Part shown: positions 37,892-60,723 of the stretch, in pieces | How the letters are laid out: each line of letters starts with the position of its first letter | How positions within the stretch are numbered: the first letter of the stretch is position 1 | Assembly (NCBI GenBank): GCA_945900775.1 | Contig: CAMDJP010000005.1 | Coordinates: 20,167 to 84,166, forward strand | DNA: 64,000 bases | Direction of reading: 5' to 3' | Origin: Akkermansia muciniphila | GTDB taxonomy: Bacteria; Verrucomicrobiota; Verrucomicrobiia; Limisphaerales; SIAT01 | Position numbers and translations under genes: made by a program | The notes under the pieces: model-generated | Told to the model about the DNA's origin: nothing | The model's database searches: none | What the model saw: the letters and a program-made list of their open reading frames with translations, nothing else

Positions 37892-37990
37892 ATGACTGAA
37901 CCATTCAAACTCACCCGTATCCCTTCACTTAAGACGGTAGAAGATTTTCGCAAACACTGCGCCGCGCTCAGCATCGAGTTGCCGTGCGAA
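37892..37990 (+). repeat. Copy A of a 99-nt direct repeat (5' end of the OYE gene duplicated in front of the pectate lyase)
   Basis: Aligns without gaps to 39124-39222 with 10 mismatches (about 90% identity). Encodes MTEPFKLTRIPSLKTVEDFRKHCAALSIELPCE. Confidence 0.9.
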
Positions 37991-39103
37991 GGTCGGGCGA
38001 ATGGGAAACTGACGAGGGAAACAATTTTAGCAGGCCTCCGATTTTCTGTAGCATCCGCGTTGACGATGCTGTGTTTGATTGGCATTGCCGAGAGCGCGCT
38101 TGGTGCGGGCGGCGGCGCAGCGCAGTTTCTCAAGAAGCCGGATAGTTGGTTCGCCAGCGACGACGCGAAACAGGTCGCGGCGAATATTCTCTCCTATCAA
38201 TCCGATCTCGGCGGATGGCCCAAGAACACTGACACCGTGGACAGGCCGTTCACCGCGGATCGCAAAGCACTCAAGCCGACGTTTGACAACGGCGCGACGA
38301 CCGACGAAATGCGTTTCCTCGACCGCATCTTCAACTCAACGAAGGACGAGCGATACCGGGCGGCGTTCGTCCGGGGATTCGATTACATCCTCAAAGCGCA
38401 GTATCCCACCGGCGGTTGGCCGCAGTTTTATCCGCCTGGCAGACAATACCATCGCCACATCACCTTCAACGACAATGCGATGGTCCGCTTGCTGGAATTT
38501 CTGCGGGAGATTTACACCGCGGATCGCTACGCGTTTCTGGAGGCCAGCCAGCGAGAGGCGGCCCGCACCGCGTTCGAGCAAGGCATCGCCTGTATCCTCA
38601 AGTGCCAGATCTCGGTCAACGGCAAGCTTACCGCCTGGTGCGCGCAGCACGATGAAAAGGATTACCGCCCGCGCCAGGGCCGCGCGTTTGAACTTATCTC
38701 GTTCAGCGGGGCGGAATCGGTCGGCCTCACGCGTTTGCTGATGAGCCTGAATCGTCCCAGCCCCGAAGTGGTGCGCGCGGTGGAAGGTGCGGTCGCCTGG
38801 TTTGTGTCAACCCGACTGACCGGCATCCGCGAGGAGAAGCAGCCCGATCCGAAGGCACCCAAGGGGACGAACAAGATCACGGTCGATGATTCTGCGGCAC
38901 CCCCGCTTTGGGCGCGGTTTTACGACATCCAGTCAAGCCGGCCCATCTTCGTGGACCGCGACGGCGTGCCAAAACCGAATCTCGCCGACATCGGCTGCGA
39001 ACGCCGCAACGGTTACGAATGGTATGGCAATTGGCCGCAGCAACTGCTCGAAAAGGATTATCCCGCGTGGAAAAAGAAGTGGGCCGGAGCGTCCGCCCGT
39101 TGA
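37892..39103 (+). CDS. Pectate lyase, PelA/Pel-15E type (polysaccharide lyase family 10-like), with a chimeric N-terminus
   Basis: 403 aa. Conserved PL10-like blocks: YQSDLGGWPKN, ATTDEMRFL, ILKAQYPTGGWPQFYP, ITFNDNAMV, WCAQHD. The first 33 codons duplicate the N-terminus of the next gene. The hydrophobic signal-like segment (FSVASALTMLCLIGIAESALGAG) lies around residues 51-73, so the functional start is uncertain. Confidence 0.8.
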   Translation: MTEPFKLTRIPSLKTVEDFRKHCAALSIELPCEGRANGKLTRETILAGLRFSVASALTMLCLIGIAESALGAGGGAAQFLKKPDSWFASDDAKQVAANILSYQSDLGGWPKNTDTVDRPFTADRKALKPTFDNGATTDEMRFLDRIFNSTKDERYRAAFVRGFDYILKAQYPTGGWPQFYPPGRQYHRHITFNDNAMVRLLEFLREIYTADRYAFLEASQREAARTAFEQGIACILKCQISVNGKLTAWCAQHDEKDYRPRQGRAFELISFSGAESVGLTRLLMSLNRPSPEVVRAVEGAVAWFVSTRLTGIREEKQPDPKAPKGTNKITVDDSAAPPLWARFYDIQSSRPIFVDRDGVPKPNLADIGCERRNGYEWYGNWPQQLLEKDYPAWKKKWAGASAR

Positions 39104-40611: not shown

Positions 40612-40659
40612 GGCCATATTTGTTTTGCCTTCGCCACGAGGTTGCGCGATAGCGGAGGC

Positions 40660-42171
40660 ATGATTTTCCAGTCGCTGCCACGTTTCTTTCTCGTCGCGCT
40701 CGGGTTTTTTATCTTCATCATCAGCTCGGTGAAGGCCACTGAGGCGCGACGGCCGAATGTTATTTTCATCATCGCCGATGATCTGGGCTGGGGCGATCTC
40801 GGCTGTTACGGCCAGAAAATCATCCGCACGCCGCACCTCGACCGGATGGCCACGGAAGGGATGCGCTTCACTCAGCATTACTCGGGCAACGCGGTCTGTG
40901 CGCCGTCACGCTGCGTGCTGATGACTGGCAAGCATCCCGGTCATGCGTTTATCCGAGACAACAAGCAGTTCAAGCCGGGGCAAGAAGGGCAGTGGCCGAT
41001 TCCAGCGGACACGGTTACGCTCGCGAAGCTTTTTCAGCACCGCGGCTACGCGACCGGTGGTTTCGGAAAGTGGGGCCTCGGAGCGCCGGGTACGGAAGGC
41101 GAGCCGCTCAAGCAAGGTTTCACGCGCTGGTTCGGTTTCAATTGCCAAGCCGTCGCACACAACTTTTACCCGACTTATCTTTGGGACAATGATCGCAAGG
41201 TGACGTTGAACAATCCGCCCTTCGCCGCGCATCAAAAACTGCCCGAGGGTGCGGACCCGAAGGATCCGACGAACTACGCGCGCTACTCGGGAAAAGAGTA
41301 TTCATCGGACCTGATATGGGAACAGGCGCGCCGGTTCGTGCGCGACAACAAGGAGCGCCCTTTCTTTCTCTTTGCGCCGACGACCGTGCCGCATCTGGCG
41401 TTGCAGGCCCCGGAGGATTCGCTCGCCGAATATCGCGGTAAATTTCCAGACGAGCCGTATCCCGGGGGCAAAGGCTACCTGCCGCACATCGCTCCACGCG
41501 CGGCGTATGCGGCGATGATCACGCGCATGGACAAGGAAATTGGCCGCTTGATGGATCTGGTGAAGGAGTTTGGCCTCGATGAGCAGACCCTCTTCGTCTT
41601 CACCTCAGACAACGGCCCGCTCTACGATAAACTCGGCGGCACCGACTGCGAATTCTTCAATTCGCACGGGGGTCTGCGCGGGCGCAAAGGCGCTCTCTAC
41701 GAAGGTGGCTTCCGAGTGCCGGCTATCGTGCGTTGGAAGGGACGCATTGCTCCGAGCATCTCGGATCGCGTGACAGGATTCGAGGACTGGATTCCGACAC
41801 TGCTTGAATTGGCTGCGTTGAAGGAGGCGATTCCCGCTGGGTTGGACGGGTTCAGTTTCGCACCGACTTTGCGCGGTGAAAAGCAATCGGAACGACCATT
41901 CCTCTACCGCGAGTTTCCGGCCTACGGCGGACAGCAGTGCATCCGCGTGGGGGACTGGAAGGGTGTCCGGCAGAGCCTGAATCTGAGAGAGAAGAAGGCT
42001 GCGGTGTCAGATGGGCGATTGGAATTGTATAACCTTAAAGACGACATCACCGAGTCGCGCGATGTCGCCGCGCAGCATCCTGAGATTATCGCACGGCTAG
42101 AGCGTCTGCTACGTGAGCAGCACACGTCTTCCAAAGAGTTTCCATTTCCGTTGCTTGATGACAGCCTTTGA
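40660..42171 (+). CDS. Arylsulfatase-family sulfatase (Cys-type, formylglycine-dependent)
   Basis: 503 aa from the ATG at 40660. Signal peptide (FFLVALGFFIFIISSVKA), then RPNVIFIIADDLGWGDLGCYG and the sulfatase signature CAPSRCVLMTGKH (C-x-P-x-R). Confidence 0.9.
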   Translation: MIFQSLPRFFLVALGFFIFIISSVKATEARRPNVIFIIADDLGWGDLGCYGQKIIRTPHLDRMATEGMRFTQHYSGNAVCAPSRCVLMTGKHPGHAFIRDNKQFKPGQEGQWPIPADTVTLAKLFQHRGYATGGFGKWGLGAPGTEGEPLKQGFTRWFGFNCQAVAHNFYPTYLWDNDRKVTLNNPPFAAHQKLPEGADPKDPTNYARYSGKEYSSDLIWEQARRFVRDNKERPFFLFAPTTVPHLALQAPEDSLAEYRGKFPDEPYPGGKGYLPHIAPRAAYAAMITRMDKEIGRLMDLVKEFGLDEQTLFVFTSDNGPLYDKLGGTDCEFFNSHGGLRGRKGALYEGGFRVPAIVRWKGRIAPSISDRVTGFEDWIPTLLELAALKEAIPAGLDGFSFAPTLRGEKQSERPFLYREFPAYGGQQCIRVGDWKGVRQSLNLREKKAAVSDGRLELYNLKDDITESRDVAAQHPEIIARLERLLREQHTSSKEFPFPLLDDSL

Positions 42172-42226: not shown

Positions 42227-42943
42227 TCACCACCAGGTGAAGGCGGAGTCCGGCGCGGGGGTGAGCAGCCAGTTGGTCATGTTCGCCGGGAAGACGAAGA
42301 ACTCCACGTGACCGTCGCCGAAGAGCATCACGTGACCGCGCTTGCCACCGCTGCCGTGCCACATGTCGTCGCGATCATAAGGCCAGTTCCAGTCGCCTTG
42401 GATAATCTTGTTCACCGCGTTCAGGGCGATTTCCGCCTCGTTCATCGAGGTCGCCTCGTACGAGCCGGGCACTTCGGTGGCCTCGCCGAGCACCCGCTTC
42501 ACGCGGAACATGTCGTCCGCCACCTGCGGCTGGTAACTGCTGCCGAAAGCCTCGTAGCAGGTCTTCACGTTGTAGGCCCCGCCGCCGATGTCGGAAGGGC
42601 AACGAAAAATATCCGGGCCGACGTACTTATTCAGAGGCCTCGAGGCCGTGGGCGTCGAAGCACCGTAGAGCTGGGCTGCCGCGGCAGGCGTGGTGAAGTT
42701 GCCTTGGACACCCCCGCTGCCAGCCGAGCCCATGACGACCGGGTAGCGTTCACTGTTGTCAGCGGTGTACATCATGAAGGCCTTGCCGATCTGCTGTTGG
42801 TTGCTGATGCACTTCGCCGTGCGGCCCTTGGATTTGGCGCTCCCCAAGGCGGGCAGCAACAGGCCCGCTAGAATGCCGATAATGGCGATGACAACCAGAA
42901 TCTCAATCAGTGTGAATGCCGAGTGTTTCGCGTTCGTTCTCAT
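42227..42943 (-). CDS. Prepilin-type N-terminal cleavage/methylation domain protein with DUF1559 ('H-X9-DG') domain
   Basis: 238 aa. N-terminus AFTLIEILVVIAIIGILAGLLLPAL is a classical type IV pilin-like leader and hydrophobic helix. C-terminal LFGDGHVEFF. This family is expanded in Planctomycetes and Verrucomicrobia. Confidence 0.85.
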   Translation of the reverse strand: MRTNAKHSAFTLIEILVVIAIIGILAGLLLPALGSAKSKGRTAKCISNQQQIGKAFMMYTADNSERYPVVMGSAGSGGVQGNFTTPAAAAQLYGASTPTASRPLNKYVGPDIFRCPSDIGGGAYNVKTCYEAFGSSYQPQVADDMFRVKRVLGEATEVPGSYEATSMNEAEIALNAVNKIIQGDWNWPYDRDDMWHGSGGKRGHVMLFGDGHVEFFVFPANMTNWLLTPAPDSAFTWW

Positions 42944-55690: not shown

Positions 55691-56410
55691 CTACTTCTTC
55701 GGCGGAGCGTTAGTAGCCGGAGGCAATACTGGGGCGACTTCTGCTGGGGCCTTTGTCGAGAGGAACGTTGCGTCCACAATCTCACCGGGAAGAATCGTGA
55801 GGCCATCCGGAACGCTGATGAAAATCGGCAGGCCGAGTTCGTCGAGGTCGTGGTGTGCCGGCAAAAGCGATTTGCGGATGGGTACGAGTTCAGTGCCTAT
55901 TCTTGTGACGCGGGCGAGCGAGGTTTTCTGGCCAAGGGAACGGGAACGAATCCGCACCTGTGTGTTGGTCTCCACCGTGACCGAGAGGGGTTGTCGGAGG
56001 AAGGCGATGATGCGATCCGCTTTCGGGGCGTTGATAGTGAGCAGGTGCTGGCCGGGTTGGACGAATTCACCCGGTTGGAGGTTCACAATGCTTACGGTGC
56101 CTTTGATCGGCGCCTTGATGTCGATCGGAGTGTTCGCACCGGAGAGGAAAATCTGCCCGAGCACTTGGCCTTGGGCGACTTCGGTGAGGTCGCGGGCGCT
56201 CATTTGAGCCACGATACCGGCGCCGGGGGAGGTGAGACGGACCTTAATGGTATCGACTTCAGCCGCTACGATGGCTGTCCCAAAACGCTGGCTCCAGAGC
56301 ACGAGGACGAAGATCAGCGCCACGCCGAAGAAGATGAACGGGAGGAAACGGATGGCTAGGTCGCGCATCCGGTTCAAGGACGGCGTCGGAATCGGTTCGT
56401 ATTGACTCAT
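55691..56410 (-). CDS. HlyD-family membrane-fusion-like protein (short, no coiled-coil hairpin)
   Basis: 239 aa. It has one N-terminal TM helix, biotinyl/lipoyl-like hairpin halves (GIVAQMSARDLTEVAQGQVLGQI ... APIKGTVSIVNLQPGEFVQPGQHLLTI), and a beta-barrel-like C-terminal part. No transporter gene is adjacent. Confidence 0.6.
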   Translation of the reverse strand: MSQYEPIPTPSLNRMRDLAIRFLPFIFFGVALIFVLVLWSQRFGTAIVAAEVDTIKVRLTSPGAGIVAQMSARDLTEVAQGQVLGQIFLSGANTPIDIKAPIKGTVSIVNLQPGEFVQPGQHLLTINAPKADRIIAFLRQPLSVTVETNTQVRIRSRSLGQKTSLARVTRIGTELVPIRKSLLPAHHDLDELGLPIFISVPDGLTILPGEIVDATFLSTKAPAEVAPVLPPATNAPPKK

Positions 56411-56548
56411 CGCACGCAGTCTTTTTCACGGATACGCCGCCGGTGCAAGCACGAAACGTTCGCCAGCAATTTTAAAATGATTTGTTAAATTTTTGTTTCA
56501 CTCGAGCGTCATTAAAAACTACTTTGGGAAAGTAATTAGTCAACAGAG

Positions 56549-57355
56549 ATGGCCCAAGACCACCACATCCAGGCGCAGCGCTTCGAACTGAAGTACATCA
56601 TCAGCGAAGAGACGGCCCTGCGCGTTCGTGACTTTATCCGCTCGTATCTCGAGCTTGACGATTATGGCGTGGGCCGCCCCCACAATTCCTATCCCGTCCA
56701 CAGTCTCTATCTCGACTCCGAACAGATGCGACTCTACTGGGAGACGGTCAATGGCAATAAGAACCGTTATAAGCTTCGGCTGCGGTTCTACCAGGATGAT
56801 CCCGAGGCGCCGGTGTTCTTCGAAATCAAGCGCCGCGAGAACGATGCCATCCTCAAACAGCGCGCTGGCGTGCGTCGTGAAGCCGTGGACTGGGTGTTGC
56901 GCGGTCATCTGCCGCCGGCTGGTTACCTCGTCTCGAACGACAACAAGACGCTCGCCGCTGTGCAGCGGTTCAGCAAACTGCTCAAGCAGACCGATGCCGT
57001 CCCCAAGGCGCACGTGGCCTATCTGCGCGAGGCGTGGGTGCACCCCGACAACAATTCCCTGCGAGTGACGATGGACCGCGAGGTGCGTTGCGGAGTCGAG
57101 ACCGCCGCGCGGCTTGTGGCGGAGATGGATAAGTCCGTAACGGTCTTCGGCAAGAGCGTCGTGCTCGAGGTGAAGTTCACCGAGCGTTTCCCGAGATGGT
57201 TCGGCGAAATGGCGCGTGTGTTTGGCTTCAAGCAGTGTTCCGCTGCGAAGTACGTGGATGGCGTCACGCTGTTGGGCGATGGTCATTTCCAATCCAGCGT
57301 GGTCCGGCGACGCAAGATGGAAACTCTCGATTCAGCAATTAAGGCATACCTATGA
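56549..57355 (+). CDS. VTC-domain protein (Vtc4-like polyphosphate polymerase / triphosphate-tunnel fold)
   Basis: 268 aa. N-terminal RFELKYII and later FEIKRRENDAILKQR, LRVTMDRE and VLEVKF strands fit the alternating charged beta-strands of the VTC/CYTH tunnel. Confidence 0.75.
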   Translation: MAQDHHIQAQRFELKYIISEETALRVRDFIRSYLELDDYGVGRPHNSYPVHSLYLDSEQMRLYWETVNGNKNRYKLRLRFYQDDPEAPVFFEIKRRENDAILKQRAGVRREAVDWVLRGHLPPAGYLVSNDNKTLAAVQRFSKLLKQTDAVPKAHVAYLREAWVHPDNNSLRVTMDREVRCGVETAARLVAEMDKSVTVFGKSVVLEVKFTERFPRWFGEMARVFGFKQCSAAKYVDGVTLLGDGHFQSSVVRRRKMETLDSAIKAYL

Positions 57356-58041
57356 ATGAATGGTTTCTCTTCCGCGGCGATTACGGGATGGGTCCCTCCA
57401 ACCTGCAGGCCCTCGTCCTCGGCGCGGTGCTCGCCTTCCTACTCGGCCAGACGATGGCTTGGGTGTACATGATCACGCACGCTGGCCTTTCCTACTCGCG
57501 CTCGTTTGTCTCCTCGCTGGTCGTCACGCCGATGGTTGTGACCACTGTGATGGCTGTGCTGGCGAACAACATGATTACCGCCTTCGGGTTGATGGCGGTG
57601 TTCGCTATCGTTCGGTTCCGGAACATCCTGCGCGACACGCTCGACACCTCCTACGTACTCGTCTCCATCGTCATCGGGATGGCCTGTGGCACGCAGAAAT
57701 TCTCCACCGCCGTTATCGGCGTCGCGCTCGTCTGCTGCGTGCTGATCTATCTCTGGTTCACCTCGTTTGGCAGTCGGCACCGTTATGACCTAATCCTGAA
57801 CCTGCAATGGTCGCGCTCGATAGAGGAGTTGCGCGAGTTGCGGGATTTGCTGGATCGCCATAGCCGTAGCATTCAACTCGCCAGCCAGCGCACTCATGAA
57901 GGTTATCAAGCGGTGGATGTTTCCTATCGTCTGTTGATGCGCGATCCGACGCGCGCCAGCGAATTGATGGCTGAGCTTCAGGAACTGACCGGTGTGACCC
58001 ACGTCACCACGATGAAAGCTGAGGACGAGTCGGAGCTGTAA
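57352..58041 (+). CDS. DUF4956-family polytopic membrane protein
   Basis: 229 aa, about four hydrophobic helices, the conserved FAIVRFRNILRDTLDTSY segment, and a soluble C-terminal tail of about 90 aa. The start overlaps the VTC gene stop (ATGA, 57352-57355). Confidence 0.7.
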   Translation: MNEWFLFRGDYGMGPSNLQALVLGAVLAFLLGQTMAWVYMITHAGLSYSRSFVSSLVVTPMVVTTVMAVLANNMITAFGLMAVFAIVRFRNILRDTLDTSYVLVSIVIGMACGTQKFSTAVIGVALVCCVLIYLWFTSFGSRHRYDLILNLQWSRSIEELRELRDLLDRHSRSIQLASQRTHEGYQAVDVSYRLLMRDPTRASELMAELQELTGVTHVTTMKAEDESEL

Positions 58042-58064: not shown

Positions 58065-58102
58065 AGCAAAAGCCGCCGGACATCCGGCGGCTTTGCTGTT
58101 TC
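58065..58102. terminator. Bidirectional hairpin terminator between convergent genes
   Basis: A 15-16 bp stem AGCAAAAGCCGCCGGA/TCCGGCGGCTTTGCT with T-rich flanks on both strands, between the DUF4956 gene (+) and the heme-protein gene (-). Confidence 0.75.
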
Positions 58103-58137: not shown

Positions 58138-60723
58138 TCACTTCAGCTTAGAAAGCTCCTCGTTAGTCCAAGCTGACTCACGCCCAGCGGTGGCGGTGCG
58201 AACCTTCTTCACGAAGTCGGGTGTGACGGGGTCATAGGGATGCTCCCATTCGCGACGGATGTAGGTGAGCACCGCGGCGAGGGTTTCATCGTCGAAGGTG
58301 CCATGGCCGGGCATATCCATGTCCCATTTGCGGCCCTGCACGGTGATTGGCCCACCGATGCCATGCAGAAGAATACGAGCAAGCTTCTCGGTCGAGCCGC
58401 CGACCCATTCGGAATCATTCAACGGCGGGGCCATGCCGTCTTGCCCGTAGCCGTGCAACTGATGGCACGCGGCGCAAGTGGCTTCGTAGGCGGCCTTGCC
58501 GGTGACGAAAAGTTTCTGCTCGCCATCGGTGAGCGGGCGAACGACCGGAAATACGACGCCGGGTTTGCCGGGCCAGATGAGCAACTGATCGAGCTTCTTG
58601 GCGGCGGTCTGGATGGCCTTGTCGGTCGATTTTTCTAACGCGGTGAGCGCGGGCGGCGCGGCAGGAAGCTTTACGAGTTTCACGCGCGGCGCCGGTTGTC
58701 CTTTGGGAACGACCGCGCCAGGAACATTCAAGCTGGCAAGGACGGCGAGCGTCTGCCATTGGGGCGTGGAATTATCGGCGATTTTCTCGAGCAGACGATT
58801 CACGTTCGCGGACTTGGCCTGTTGGAAGATCGATTTTCCTAACGCGCCAATGAAGGCGTCGCCGCCAGCAAATTTCTGCTTCCACGCCTGATTTTCGAAC
58901 ACGCGATCGAGAATGTTCGCCTCGCGCAGGGAGAGGCCGCTGATGAGCGCGTCGCGGATAAGGCCGTTGGTGCCGGCATTTTTTAGGAGCGTCATCATTG
59001 CAACTTCGGCGGAGGGATCGTTGATTTCGCCGAGCGTGAAAGCGAGTTGCACTTGGATGTTCAAATCCTTGGACATTGCGAGGGCCGTAAGCTTGGGCAG
59101 GAGTTTTTCCTTATCGGTCTTGAGCGAAGGTTCGCTCAGACGGATGGCAGCGGCGCGAATCTTCGTATCCGTATCTTTCTCGATCACATTTGCCAGTGTG
59201 GCGGCATCAAGTTGACCGATGCCTTCGAGCGTCCAGAGCGCGTGGAGACGGGTGAGGGGATTGGCGTGCTGCAGCGCCAGCGTTTTCAGTGGCGCGATGA
59301 CGGAGGCAGGAGATTTCTCGACGAGCAACCGCTGCGCGGTGTCACGCCACCAGCCGTTCGAATGCGCGAGCGTATTGACGAGGTCAGCAGGAGCGGCGTT
59401 AGCGAGCTGGGGCTTCGGGCCGGGGGGCTTGCCGGTGTGGACAATGCGGTAAATGCGGCCGCGGCGGATGACCTTGTCGAGGCCGCGGTCCTCCGCCTGC
59501 TTGCGCAGGTAACTCGTGAGGAAGACGCGGTGTTGCACGACACCGTGGTACATATCTACGAGATAGAGGCAGCCATCGGGGCCGGTGTAGGCGTTCATGG
59601 GACGAAAAAGTTCGTCCGTGGAAGTAAGGAACTCCGCTTCTTTGTAAGGGTTCGTCCCAGAGATTTCACCAGATTTCTCCGTGAGAACCATGCGGCGAAC
59701 CATGTTGCCAGCGGGCTCGGGGATGAAGGCGTTGCCGTAGAATTCCGCAGGGAAATTATCGCCGCGATAGATGACCGGTCCGCAGGTGGCGGTGTATTTG
59801 TTGAGCGTGCCGTCGGGTTTGAGCGTAACTGGTTGATAGCCGCGGTTCACGCCGGGATTCACGCGCCCGGGCCAGACCGTTTGGTCCTTCATCGGCTGCT
59901 GGTTGAGGCCGGCGGTGGAGCGGAAGAGCGGGTTGCGGAAGTAATACTCGCTGGGCACGTAGTCGGTGCGGAGCTGGTCGGAATTGGAATTGTAGAACGG
60001 CCGGCCCCAATCATCCATCGTCATCCCCCACTGACCGCGGAAGGTGGTGGGAAGGCGTTTCCATTCCTCGTCCACGCGCCGGTAGCGGAAGGTGTGGTTC
60101 GCGGAAATGATCCAGTTGTTCATGAGCCACGTGGGGCTGTTACCCGTGTGCTCAGGATTCTTGATGGCGGCCGGCGCGTAGTTCTTGTCCACCAACACCC
60201 GTTTGCCGGGCTTCAGACCGGGCTCGATGGGGAACCACCAGAGCGTCGTCGCTTCGCAGACGAGAAGCCCGCCGTAGGCGAGGCAGAGAGCGCGCGGCAG
60301 AACGAGCTTGTCGAGGAAGACGGTCTTCTTGTCCATCTTGCCATCGCCGTCGGTATCCTCGAGGACCGAAATACGGTTGATGGGATCGGTCTCTCCCGCA
60401 GCATCCGGGGTGGCCATGTAGCTGGGCATTTCGGCAATCCAAATCCGGCCATCGGCGTCCCACTGCATTGCGACCGGCGTCTCGATGAGCGGATCCGCGG
60501 CGACGACTTCGATGCGGAAGCCGGGTGGGAGCTTGAAGGTTTTCAGCGCGTCGGCGGGTGCGAGCGGCGGGTTGGCGGGAATTTTTTCCTTCGGCACGCG
60601 CGACTCTTGTTTCTCACCCGCCTTATCGCCCGACTGGGCGTGGGCGAGGGAGGCGGTGAGGCAGAGCGCGACGAGGAGACGGGGCAGTATGGTTTTCACG
60701 TTCAAAAAAATTGTGACAATCAA
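58138..60723 (-). CDS. PVC-type heme-binding CxxCH protein (membrane-bound dehydrogenase-like beta-propeller + HEAT repeats + C-terminal cytochrome c)
   Basis: 861 aa. Signal peptide, an N-terminal DGRIWIAEMPSY-type propeller region, a central HEAT-like region (RLHALWTLEG..., IRAAAIRL), and the C-terminal heme motif CAACHQLHG. This architecture is typical of Planctomycetes and Verrucomicrobia. Confidence 0.8.
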   Translation of the reverse strand: MIVTIFLNVKTILPRLLVALCLTASLAHAQSGDKAGEKQESRVPKEKIPANPPLAPADALKTFKLPPGFRIEVVAADPLIETPVAMQWDADGRIWIAEMPSYMATPDAAGETDPINRISVLEDTDGDGKMDKKTVFLDKLVLPRALCLAYGGLLVCEATTLWWFPIEPGLKPGKRVLVDKNYAPAAIKNPEHTGNSPTWLMNNWIISANHTFRYRRVDEEWKRLPTTFRGQWGMTMDDWGRPFYNSNSDQLRTDYVPSEYYFRNPLFRSTAGLNQQPMKDQTVWPGRVNPGVNRGYQPVTLKPDGTLNKYTATCGPVIYRGDNFPAEFYGNAFIPEPAGNMVRRMVLTEKSGEISGTNPYKEAEFLTSTDELFRPMNAYTGPDGCLYLVDMYHGVVQHRVFLTSYLRKQAEDRGLDKVIRRGRIYRIVHTGKPPGPKPQLANAAPADLVNTLAHSNGWWRDTAQRLLVEKSPASVIAPLKTLALQHANPLTRLHALWTLEGIGQLDAATLANVIEKDTDTKIRAAAIRLSEPSLKTDKEKLLPKLTALAMSKDLNIQVQLAFTLGEINDPSAEVAMMTLLKNAGTNGLIRDALISGLSLREANILDRVFENQAWKQKFAGGDAFIGALGKSIFQQAKSANVNRLLEKIADNSTPQWQTLAVLASLNVPGAVVPKGQPAPRVKLVKLPAAPPALTALEKSTDKAIQTAAKKLDQLLIWPGKPGVVFPVVRPLTDGEQKLFVTGKAAYEATCAACHQLHGYGQDGMAPPLNDSEWVGGSTEKLARILLHGIGGPITVQGRKWDMDMPGHGTFDDETLAAVLTYIRREWEHPYDPVTPDFVKKVRTATAGRESAWTNEELSKLK

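Follow-up and report, generated by a model that had tools for sequence, protein, structure and literature searches.

A three-gene module that may couple the synthesis of polyphosphate (polyP) to its export across the cell envelope was identified in a 64,000-nucleotide stretch of DNA from a Verrucomicrobia-type bacterium, filed under Akkermansia muciniphila (contig CAMDJP010000005.1; this whole stretch is referred to below as the window). The module comprises genes for a soluble VTC-domain protein with a Vtc4-type active site, a DUF4956 membrane protein and a HlyD-type periplasmic adaptor, and this set is at present the leading candidate for a bacterial system that would both make polyP and export it, a reading which is given a probability of roughly 0.45. 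The original prediction, made from the letters of the window, had described a unit of two genes. The pair itself stood, as both open reading frames and their ATGA overlap (57352-57355) are present, but the size of the unit did not, since the adaptor gene is a third conserved member in this lineage and the presumed divergent promoter therefore separates two parts of one system. The features concerned are as follows.

56549..57355, + strand: gene for the VTC-domain protein (268 amino acids; Pfam PF09359)
57352..58041, + strand: gene for the DUF4956 protein (229 amino acids; Pfam PF16316)
55691..56410, - strand: gene for the HlyD-type periplasmic adaptor, or membrane-fusion protein (239 amino acids)
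56411..56548: A+T-rich control region of 138 bp between the divergent adaptor and VTC genes
56482..56499, + strand: PHO-box-like direct repeat with an 11-bp period, weak, with two mismatches
58069..58094: intrinsic-terminator-like hairpin, bidirectional, common to the module and a convergent gene at 58138..60723

Active site and envelope partners of the module

The VTC-domain protein matched Pfam PF09359 with an E value of 1.7e-38 (133 bits, cut-off 23), the match extending over profile positions 2-234 of 235 and placing the domain at residues 11-242. It is a stand-alone tunnel domain, with no SPX domain, no transmembrane segment and no second Pfam match; no NCBIfam model was found for either this protein or the DUF4956 protein. 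When its AlphaFold2 model, which had a predicted local distance difference test (pLDDT) score of 88.6, was compared with the PDB by Foldseek, the 13 best matches were all structures of Vtc4, Vtc2 or Vtc3 (top match 3g3r, template-modelling (TM) score 0.72, E 3e-15); thiamine triphosphatase (ThTPase) came next among tunnel enzymes, with a TM score of 0.41. A single-sequence phmmer search against PDB sequences reached Vtc4 weakly (E 0.92), a profile of 49 close homologues reached it at E 1.8e-7, and a profile of 94 distant representatives, which share 32-52% identity with the window protein, reached it at E 1.7e-18 in a single alignment across the entire catalytic domain. The VTC/triphosphate-tunnel fold, which had originally been read from the motifs RFELKYII, FEIKRRE and VLEVKF, was thus confirmed by both the Pfam match and the structural comparison. 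These motifs are tunnel strands that carry K15, K94 and E207/K209, and they align with K200, K281 and E426/K428 of Vtc4.

The residues that hold triphosphate and Mn2+ in Vtc4, and whose mutation lowers cellular polyP, are K200, R264, R266, K281, Y359, R361, S457, K458 and E426 (bioRxiv 10.1101/2023.01.27.525886). Among them, K458 is the single position that differs in the inactive Vtc2 and Vtc3, where Ile or Leu is found (bioRxiv 10.1101/2023.01.27.525886), and the combination R264A/R266A/E426N gives a dead mutant (PMC9911596). Eight of these nine residues needed for polyP synthesis are identical in the window protein (K200 corresponds to K15, R264 to R77, R266 to R79, K281 to K94, Y359 to Y158, R361 to R160, E426 to E207 and K458 to K234), the exception being S457, which corresponds to A233. 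The mapped active-site residues are invariant in all 49 close homologues. The 94 distant homologues all have R77, R79 and K94; Arg at the position of R160 occurs in 93 of them, Tyr or Phe at that of Y158 also in 93, Lys at that of K234 and Glu at that of E207 in 92 each, and Lys at that of K15 in 83. The Lys/Arg catalytic ladder, which the original prediction had proposed to compare with that of Vtc4, is therefore present, and the window protein was shown, by sequence and predicted fold, to be a soluble Vtc4-type triphosphate-tunnel domain whose predicted substrate- and metal-binding residues are intact.

VTC-like proteins (E up to 1e-3) make up a large family that falls into 4368 clusters at 50% identity, and almost all of its members are stand-alone proteins of 240-300 amino acids. 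No fusion of VTC and DUF4956 was seen among the best 150 VTC-like representatives; longer proteins have only low-complexity tails, and two giant predicted proteins have other domains (P0364, 2278 amino acids; P0379, 4352 amino acids). In these two the VTC domain lies near the C-terminus; one of them also contains CofD and many TPR repeats, and the other contains GlnD uridylyltransferase, ACT and Rce1-like domains. They could be either true multidomain proteins or gene-call fusions.

The 229-residue membrane protein matched PF16316 (E 9.3e-13, 48.7 bits, cut-off 30.6), and its AlphaFold2 model (pLDDT 77) has five predicted transmembrane helices (18-42, 50-69, 74-88, 96-113 and 117-136), followed by a C-terminal ACT-like domain (147-222) with a beta-alpha-beta-beta-alpha-beta order and weak PDB matches to ACT domains (SerA/Ser33, IlvN and Rel). 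Six DUF4956 proteins from Verrucomicrobiota, Bacillota and Actinomycetota, which share 19-24% identity, have only M1, Y48, R88, F89, R90, G109 and G113 in common. The VRFRN segment, from which a DUF4956-like protein had originally been recognized, holds R88 and R90, the only basic residues invariant across the three phyla, and the PF16316 match and the invariant RFR motif (88-90), which lies in the loop after helix 3, bear out that recognition.

The relationship of this protein to MgtC is remote. The Pfam MgtC model PF02308 gave an insignificant match (E 0.19, 12.5 bits, below the gathering score of 31.4), and an hhalign comparison of six diverse DUF4956 proteins with a YhiD/MgtC alignment gave 93.9% probability (E 1.6e-7, 146 columns), the columns being co-linear over the last three helices and the entire C-terminal domain. 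On the basis of this profile comparison, DUF4956 is a remote relative of the MgtC/YhiD superfamily, which bears out an earlier remark that the Streptococcus intermedius member has an MgtC-like transmembrane domain and an ACT domain (PMC12345266). MgtC/SapB/YhiD proteins are of the same size and architecture; they lack the RFR motif, which is specific to DUF4956, neither pairing with a tunnel enzyme nor pairing with an adaptor is known for them, and a transport role has not been established. The loop charges of DUF4956 are weakly consistent, by positive-inside reasoning, with an N-out, C-in topology, and the RFR loop and the ACT-like domain probably face the cytoplasm, mainly because an ACT-type domain is expected there. 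With this topology, three basic elements would lie on the cytoplasmic face, namely the loop after helix 1, R88-F-R90, and SRHRYD after helix 5.

The third protein was matched by Pfam HlyD_3 (E 5e-11) and HlyD_D23 (E 1e-7) and consists of an N-terminal cytoplasmic IPTP motif, a single transmembrane helix (hydrophobic segment at residues 20-40), and lipoyl and beta-barrel parts. When it was used as the seed of a jackhmmer search, orthologues were recovered in 102 loci, nearly all directly 3' of DUF4956. The long forms have a median length of 366 amino acids (356-531 for hairpin-bearing orthologues) and share an N-terminal cytoplasmic IPxP motif, one transmembrane helix, a lipoyl domain into which a long alpha-helical hairpin is inserted, and a beta-barrel ending in PGE-V-D. 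They match the NCBIfam models for EmrA/EmrK, MdtN, HlyD of type I secretion, DevB and RND_mfp, all below the curated cut-offs, and hence form a separate adaptor subfamily. Between the window and the related locus L001, the ratio of nonsynonymous to synonymous substitution rates (dN/dS) is 0.10 for the adaptor, with corresponding values of 0.08-0.16 for VTC and 0.07-0.09 for DUF4956, which shows that all three module genes are under purifying selection.

Conservation of the module and its alternative third partners

Well beyond the window genome, the VTC-DUF4956 pairing recurs in Bacillota and Actinomycetota as well as in Verrucomicrobiota and another, uncultured clade. When one genome per species was scanned, 472 VTC relatives were confirmed, the best 80 of which made up the Verrucomicrobia set; the second clade comprised 80 metagenome loci whose VTC proteins are about 35-40% identical. 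DUF4956 lies directly 3' of VTC on the same strand in 73 of the 80 Verrucomicrobia loci (the remaining seven being one locus that ends too early and six orphan VTC paralogues), directly downstream in 56 of the 66 informative loci of the second clade, and directly after VTC in all five loci of Bacillota and Actinomycetota. In 35 of 74 pairs the first gene runs into the second (by ATGA in 30 and by 8 nt in 5), and their junction is no longer than 31 nt in 60 of the 74. The pairing is more than chance.

The adaptor gene is adjacent in 59 of the 71 Verrucomicrobia pairs with enough sequence, 56 of these adaptor genes being downstream of DUF4956 and three divergent upstream. It is also adjacent, and downstream, in 42 of 43 pairs of the second clade, with the remaining locus having it one gene further, and it is present in none of the five monoderm loci. 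A median of 3 nt separates the DUF4956 stop from the start of the adaptor gene, and the distance exceeds 30 nt in only two of 58 cases. The divergent arrangement, inverted relative to the other loci, and the lack of the alpha-helical hairpin occur only in the window and its two close relatives, L001 and L002; the adaptor gene has thus moved and been inverted in the window lineage, in which the terminator now follows DUF4956. No fourth gene was conserved within 3.5 kb in 96 loci, none being present in more than 12 of them; the module has no linked ABC, MFS or RND transporter gene, and its neighbors in the window are unrelated to it.

Several variants of the module were also observed. Twelve Verrucomicrobia loci (L003, L005, L006, L027, L030, L035, L039, L046, L057, L059, L068 and L069) have the pair without an adaptor gene within the fetched flanks, and the adaptor gene seems to have been mobile, or to have disappeared, in this branch, because L003, L005 and L006 are the next-closest relatives of the window lineage. 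The six orphan VTC paralogues (L023, L031, L032, L040, L054 and L072) are 58-65% identical to the window VTC protein and have neither DUF4956 nor an adaptor nearby, and their existence suggests that some tunnel domains may work without membrane partners; L032 and L054 form a distinct orphan subtype with QRWELKYII, TTTAAKY and a longer C-terminal tail. Two complete VTC-DUF4956-adaptor operons (L010 and L042) were found on different contigs of one metagenome-assembled genome (SIBF01, Pedosphaera sp. Baikal-deep-G226). Furthermore, Verrucomicrobia-type modules are filed as Akkermansia muciniphila, Klebsiella sp., Lysobacteraceae and Candidatus Methylomirabilota (L001, L006, L007, L009, L027, L030, L069 and others), and such labels in public records are probably binning or naming errors.

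In Gram-positive bacteria the third partner is a different one. Five monoderm loci, from Nonomuraea, Planococcus, Enterococcus, Paenibacillus and Pseudobutyrivibrio, were found by tblastn in a plasmid collection. In four of them a CotH kinase gene adjoins the pair or is separated from it only by a two-component system, and the fifth has a Cthe_2159 carbohydrate-binding protein instead of CotH. All four CotH proteins have a hydrophobic N-terminal signal or anchor sequence as judged by eye, one of them with a lipobox. The pel and related loci described previously (PMC7112168; S. intermedius SIR_1592-1594, PMC12345266; C. perfringens NELoc-2, PMC2879425) have the same VTC-to-DUF4956 order with close spacing; they carry a secreted CotH and no adaptor, whereas the Verrucomicrobia and second-clade loci carry the adaptor and have CotH in only 1 of 160. 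It was therefore shown that the core pair has two alternative, lineage-specific third partners, the adaptor or a secreted CotH kinase, both of which are extracytoplasmic, and this is taken as the strongest contextual argument that the core acts toward the outside of the cytoplasmic membrane. A CotH linkage, which the original prediction had mentioned, was rejected for the window lineage, since the CotH profile had no match in the window or in any of the 80 Verrucomicrobia loci; the second clade gave one match in 80.

Some description of the pair already exists, so the earlier statement that it lacked any experimental characterization held only in part. Earlier work counted cotH, 'polyphosphate polymerase' and DUF4956 among the accessory genes that accompany pel in Gram-positive bacteria (PMC7112168). 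In S. intermedius the genes have been deleted one at a time, and loss of DUF4956 or CotH reduced aggregation in artificial sputum medium and altered Pel levels (PMC12345266). In C. perfringens NELoc-2, the order is VTC, a membrane protein of 222-226 amino acids, and CotH (PMC2879425); the cytoplasmic membrane proteins of 222-226 amino acids designated there as 'tubulin/FtsZ GTPase' are probably DUF4956 proteins. The Planococcus plasmid locus (L081, 4470-12824) and NELoc-2 share a longer gene order, in which VTC, DUF4956 and CotH are followed by a large hypothetical protein, a HEAT-repeat protein and a glycosyltransferase. This synteny in Firmicutes contradicts the claim that the three-gene synteny is limited to pel loci (PMC12345266). 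In addition, an OmpR-type response regulator and a histidine kinase are encoded inside or beside the cluster on an Enterococcus faecalis plasmid (L084, 7614-9633) and in Paenibacillus (L085, 3712-5166), which fits response-regulator control of the module.

Proposed polyphosphate export and competing readings

The control region links the module to phosphate physiology independently, if partially. The spacer between the adaptor and VTC genes is exactly 138 bp long and A+T-rich, as the original prediction had noticed; it has 41.3% G+C compared with 60.3% in the window, only 0.3% of 138-bp stretches being equally A+T-rich. The stretch 56390-56570 is 82% identical across the window, L001 and L002, even though the flanking genes show a synonymous divergence (dS) of 0.55-0.9; a sigma-70 consensus scan of the intergenic region found no site. 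The spacer contains the repeat TTGTTAA-ATTT-TTGTTTC with an 11-bp period, which is nearly unchanged in L001 and L002, with one base of the first unit differing in L002. Better repeats of the form TTGTCAC-N4-TTGTCAC or TTGTGAC-N4-TTGTGAC are found in several related loci. These resemble the PHO box, which is built from a pair of directly repeated 11-nt units that contain a conserved 7-mer (CTGTCAT in E. coli; PMC4415409). The 200 bp upstream of the VTC start in 161 loci were scanned with the pattern TGT[CGT]A[CT]-N5-TGT[CGT]A[CT], allowing at most one mismatch, and 36 matches were found in 25 loci (e.g., L007, L009, L010, L024, L028, L051 and L155), i.e., 1.14 per kb compared with 0.028 per kb elsewhere in the same loci, an enrichment of about 40-fold. 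Shuffled upstream regions gave 2.1 +/- 1.5 matches, and periods of 9, 10, 12 and 13 bp gave 3-5. The pattern was generalized after examples had been seen, and other regulators of the OmpR family also bind 11-bp repeats.

Taken together, these features suggest a mechanism in which the tunnel domain would bind ATP-Mn2+, add the gamma-phosphate to a growing polyP chain and release ADP, as expected from its homology to Vtc4. The ATGA overlap and the conserved adjacency imply that the VTC protein and the five-helix, MgtC-like DUF4956 protein would be made in fixed proportion. The exit of the tunnel may dock on the basic R88/R90 cytoplasmic face of an oligomeric DUF4956, which would pass the nascent chain over the inner membrane, with polymerization driving translocation as in yeast VTC, and the ACT-like domain might take the regulatory place of the eukaryotic SPX domain. 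The adaptor would carry the chain onward across the periplasm, and in most lineages this route probably leads to a TolC-like outer-membrane channel whose gene lies elsewhere; in the window lineage, in which the channel-contacting hairpin has been lost and the gene inverted, delivery may end in the periplasm. Expression could be tied to phosphate status via the PHO-box-like sites. A bolder version of this reading, in which many diderms would possess a third, PPK-independent polyP route whose Vtc4-type polymerase threads the polymer via an MgtC-like protein and an adaptor to the surface or medium, as a prokaryotic relative or ancestor of eukaryotic VTC, is possible, with the odds rather against it.

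The closest known system is the eukaryotic VTC complex (yeast Vtc4 with Vtc1/2/3/5; PDB 3G3Q, 7YTJ and 8I6V), which has the same tunnel fold, shares the residues that bind triphosphate and metal, the Vtc4-specific Lys among them, and likewise has an enzyme tied to a membrane partner. Synthesis-coupled translocation follows the same logic in both, although for the bacterial module it is only proposed. Eukaryotic VTC has an SPX domain for inositol pyrophosphate sensing and fused transmembrane segments, neither of which the bacterial VTC protein possesses; its pore is built of three-helix DUF202 subunits, whereas the bacterial partner is a five-helix MgtC-like protein. The bacterial proteins are separate, operon-encoded polypeptides with an extra periplasmic adaptor, and the bacterial VTC protein is about 18% identical to Vtc4, with Ala in place of S457. 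The adaptor resembles those of EmrAB-TolC, HlyBD-TolC and MacAB-TolC in its N-terminal anchor, hairpin-split lipoyl domain, beta-barrel and operon with an inner-membrane component; tripartite exporters, however, carry an ABC, MFS or RND transporter and an outer-membrane factor, and the module loci have linked genes for neither. PPK1 and PPK2 would share the proposed product, but they have unrelated folds, are cytoplasmic or peripheral, and have no dedicated membrane or periplasmic partner.

Several observations weigh against a polyP synthesis-export machine. On the catalytic side, the Ala at the position of S457 lies at a site that is variable within the family, and the Thr of Vtc4 corresponds in the bacterial family to a Glu that never varies, E13 (motif R-x-E-x-K). 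This residue falls within the ExExK metal motif of hydrolases, in which the glutamates of hydrolytic tunnel enzymes bind metals, and most tunnel enzymes hydrolyse triphosphates (PMC9582702). Because of E13, a polymerase and a hydrolase are not separable by sequence. Moreover, deletion of the VTC gene in S. intermedius had no detectable effect, unlike that of DUF4956 or CotH (PMC12345266). E13, the prevalence of hydrolases among tunnel enzymes and this deletion result favor an alternative in which a VTC-like triphosphate or ATP hydrolase energizes or gates a DUF4956 and adaptor exporter of some other substrate, much as the ABC ATPase does in MacAB or HlyBD, and no polyP is made; E13 would restore half of the metal motif, and the adaptors do resemble those of drug and protein exporters. 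However, the fold and residues are Vtc4-specific and not those of a CYTH-type hydrolase (TM scores of 0.72 and 0.41), the Lys that separates the active polymerase from its inactive paralogues is kept, no tunnel enzyme that drives a transporter is known, and the PHO-box enrichment indicates phosphate physiology. This alternative is considered unlikely.

On the membrane side, sequence and fold searches gave no PDB match for the helical part of DUF4956 and no channel or transporter, its predicted helices contain no charged residues, and there was no DUF202 Pfam match at E values up to 10, so the protein is unrelated to the pore helices of yeast VTC. Its sole detectable relatives, MgtC/YhiD, have been described as regulators (PMC12345266), and the term 'translocase' used in the original prediction therefore finds no support in homology; a channel role can only be presumed. 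The broader idea of a coupling to the membrane and to export fared better, as the HlyD-type adaptor, which the original prediction had not included, speaks for it; DUF4956 itself is not a recognizable channel. As for the adaptor, the proteins of the window and L001 (239-240 amino acids) lack the alpha-helical hairpin, which appears as a clean deletion in the alignment with the long forms, and no outer-membrane factor gene was linked to the module in 96 loci. The short adaptor is not a pseudogene, given its dN/dS of 0.10.

It is conceivable from such data that polyP is made at the inner membrane face, is not exported and accumulates in cytoplasmic granules, DUF4956 being an anchor with an ACT regulator and the adaptor stabilizing the complex or sensing the envelope. 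The homology of DUF4956 to MgtC/YhiD, its lack of pore-like features or a PDB channel match and the loss of the hairpin in the window adaptor are all in keeping with this. A cytoplasmic product is, however, hard to square with a periplasmic adaptor kept beside the pair in about 100 loci; in addition, the third partner in monoderms is a secreted kinase, and the eukaryotic homologue couples synthesis to translocation (PMC9911596). Retention of the product inside the cell is thus judged to be distinctly unlikely.

The PHO-like evidence has its own weakness, since the site in the window is weak, with two mismatches, and the PhoB consensus of Verrucomicrobia may differ from the known one. If taken at face value, PHO-box-like sites upstream of VTC in 25 of 161 loci would also suit a scavenging system induced by phosphate starvation as part of the Pho regulon, in which external polyP or triphosphate is taken up or processed and degraded in the cytoplasm by the tunnel enzyme. 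Pho regulons are rich in scavenging functions (PMC4415409), and the acidic E13 is present; against this, all models matched by the adaptors are those of export systems, no binding protein or porin is linked, and the window site is weak. Scavenging is therefore regarded as very unlikely.

As of 2026, the field lists no bacterial polyP synthases other than PPK1 and PPK2 and regards VTC as eukaryotic (PMC13318637), although some bacteria secrete or accumulate extracellular polyP that affects host cells (PMC10653871, PMC12026824). In the literature searched, no published polyP exporter in bacteria and no published enzyme assay of a bacterial VTC protein were found, nor was any report of the adaptor as a third member or of a PHO-box-like link. 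The gene pair as such is not new, because databases already annotate both families and earlier work on Gram-positive loci had noted the pair; what is new is the adaptor as a third member, the PHO-box-like sites, and a prokaryotic, adaptor-linked version of the VTC principle. The module thus offers a compact, widespread and cloneable candidate for both polyP synthesis and polyP export. If synthesis and export are indeed coupled here, it would represent the missing bacterial polyP exporter, show how eukaryotic VTC relates to prokaryotic parts, provide a mechanistic role for DUF4956 and the MgtC superfamily, with the first transport-type function there, and explain why the same core occurs in Gram-positive loci with pel and CotH. 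Should the enzyme turn out to be a hydrolase, the module would nevertheless represent an adaptor-linked envelope system of a new kind.

Genomic surroundings in the window

The module is followed by the strong bidirectional terminator that had been proposed, a hairpin detected on both strands with an 11-bp stem, including eight G-C pairs, and a 4-nt loop. The stem is preceded by an A run and followed by a T run, the T-rich tail on the + strand being GCTGTTTCTA. The neighbors of the module are housekeeping genes, including those for glutamate synthase (gltB), aconitase, MnmA, RsmB and RNase HII (rnhB), together with a transglutaminase-like SirB1 protein, a PVC-type haem-binding cytochrome c protein, a pectate lyase and a sulfatase. 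No ppk, ppx or pho gene was found among the neighboring window open reading frames scanned, which are housekeeping or polysaccharide-degradation genes.

The varied genomic contexts of the module, and its plasmid-borne state in Bacillota, might point to anti-phage defence or another function of an accessory island that has nothing to do with phosphate polymers. None of the three module proteins matched a PADLOC defence model, however, the neighbors in the window are housekeeping genes (gltB, aconitase, mnmA and rnhB), and the module shows species-level presence across the whole clade, with 472 confirmed stretches. A defence or island function is accordingly thought to be extremely unlikely.

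The gene convergent with the module and sharing its terminator (58138..60723, - strand) encodes a protein of 861 amino acids with an N-terminal DUF7133/PVC-type haem-binding domain containing CxxCH, HEAT repeats and a C-terminal cytochrome c domain. In 10 other loci a relative is located no more than 6 kb away from VTC, and this recurrence looks like local synteny and not a functional link. Further away in the window, genes for a pectate lyase (37892..39103, + strand), a sulfatase (40642..42171, + strand) and a protein whose N-terminus bears a prepilin-type methylation motif (42227..42943, - strand) bear no relation to the module and are typical of polysaccharide-degrading Verrucomicrobia.

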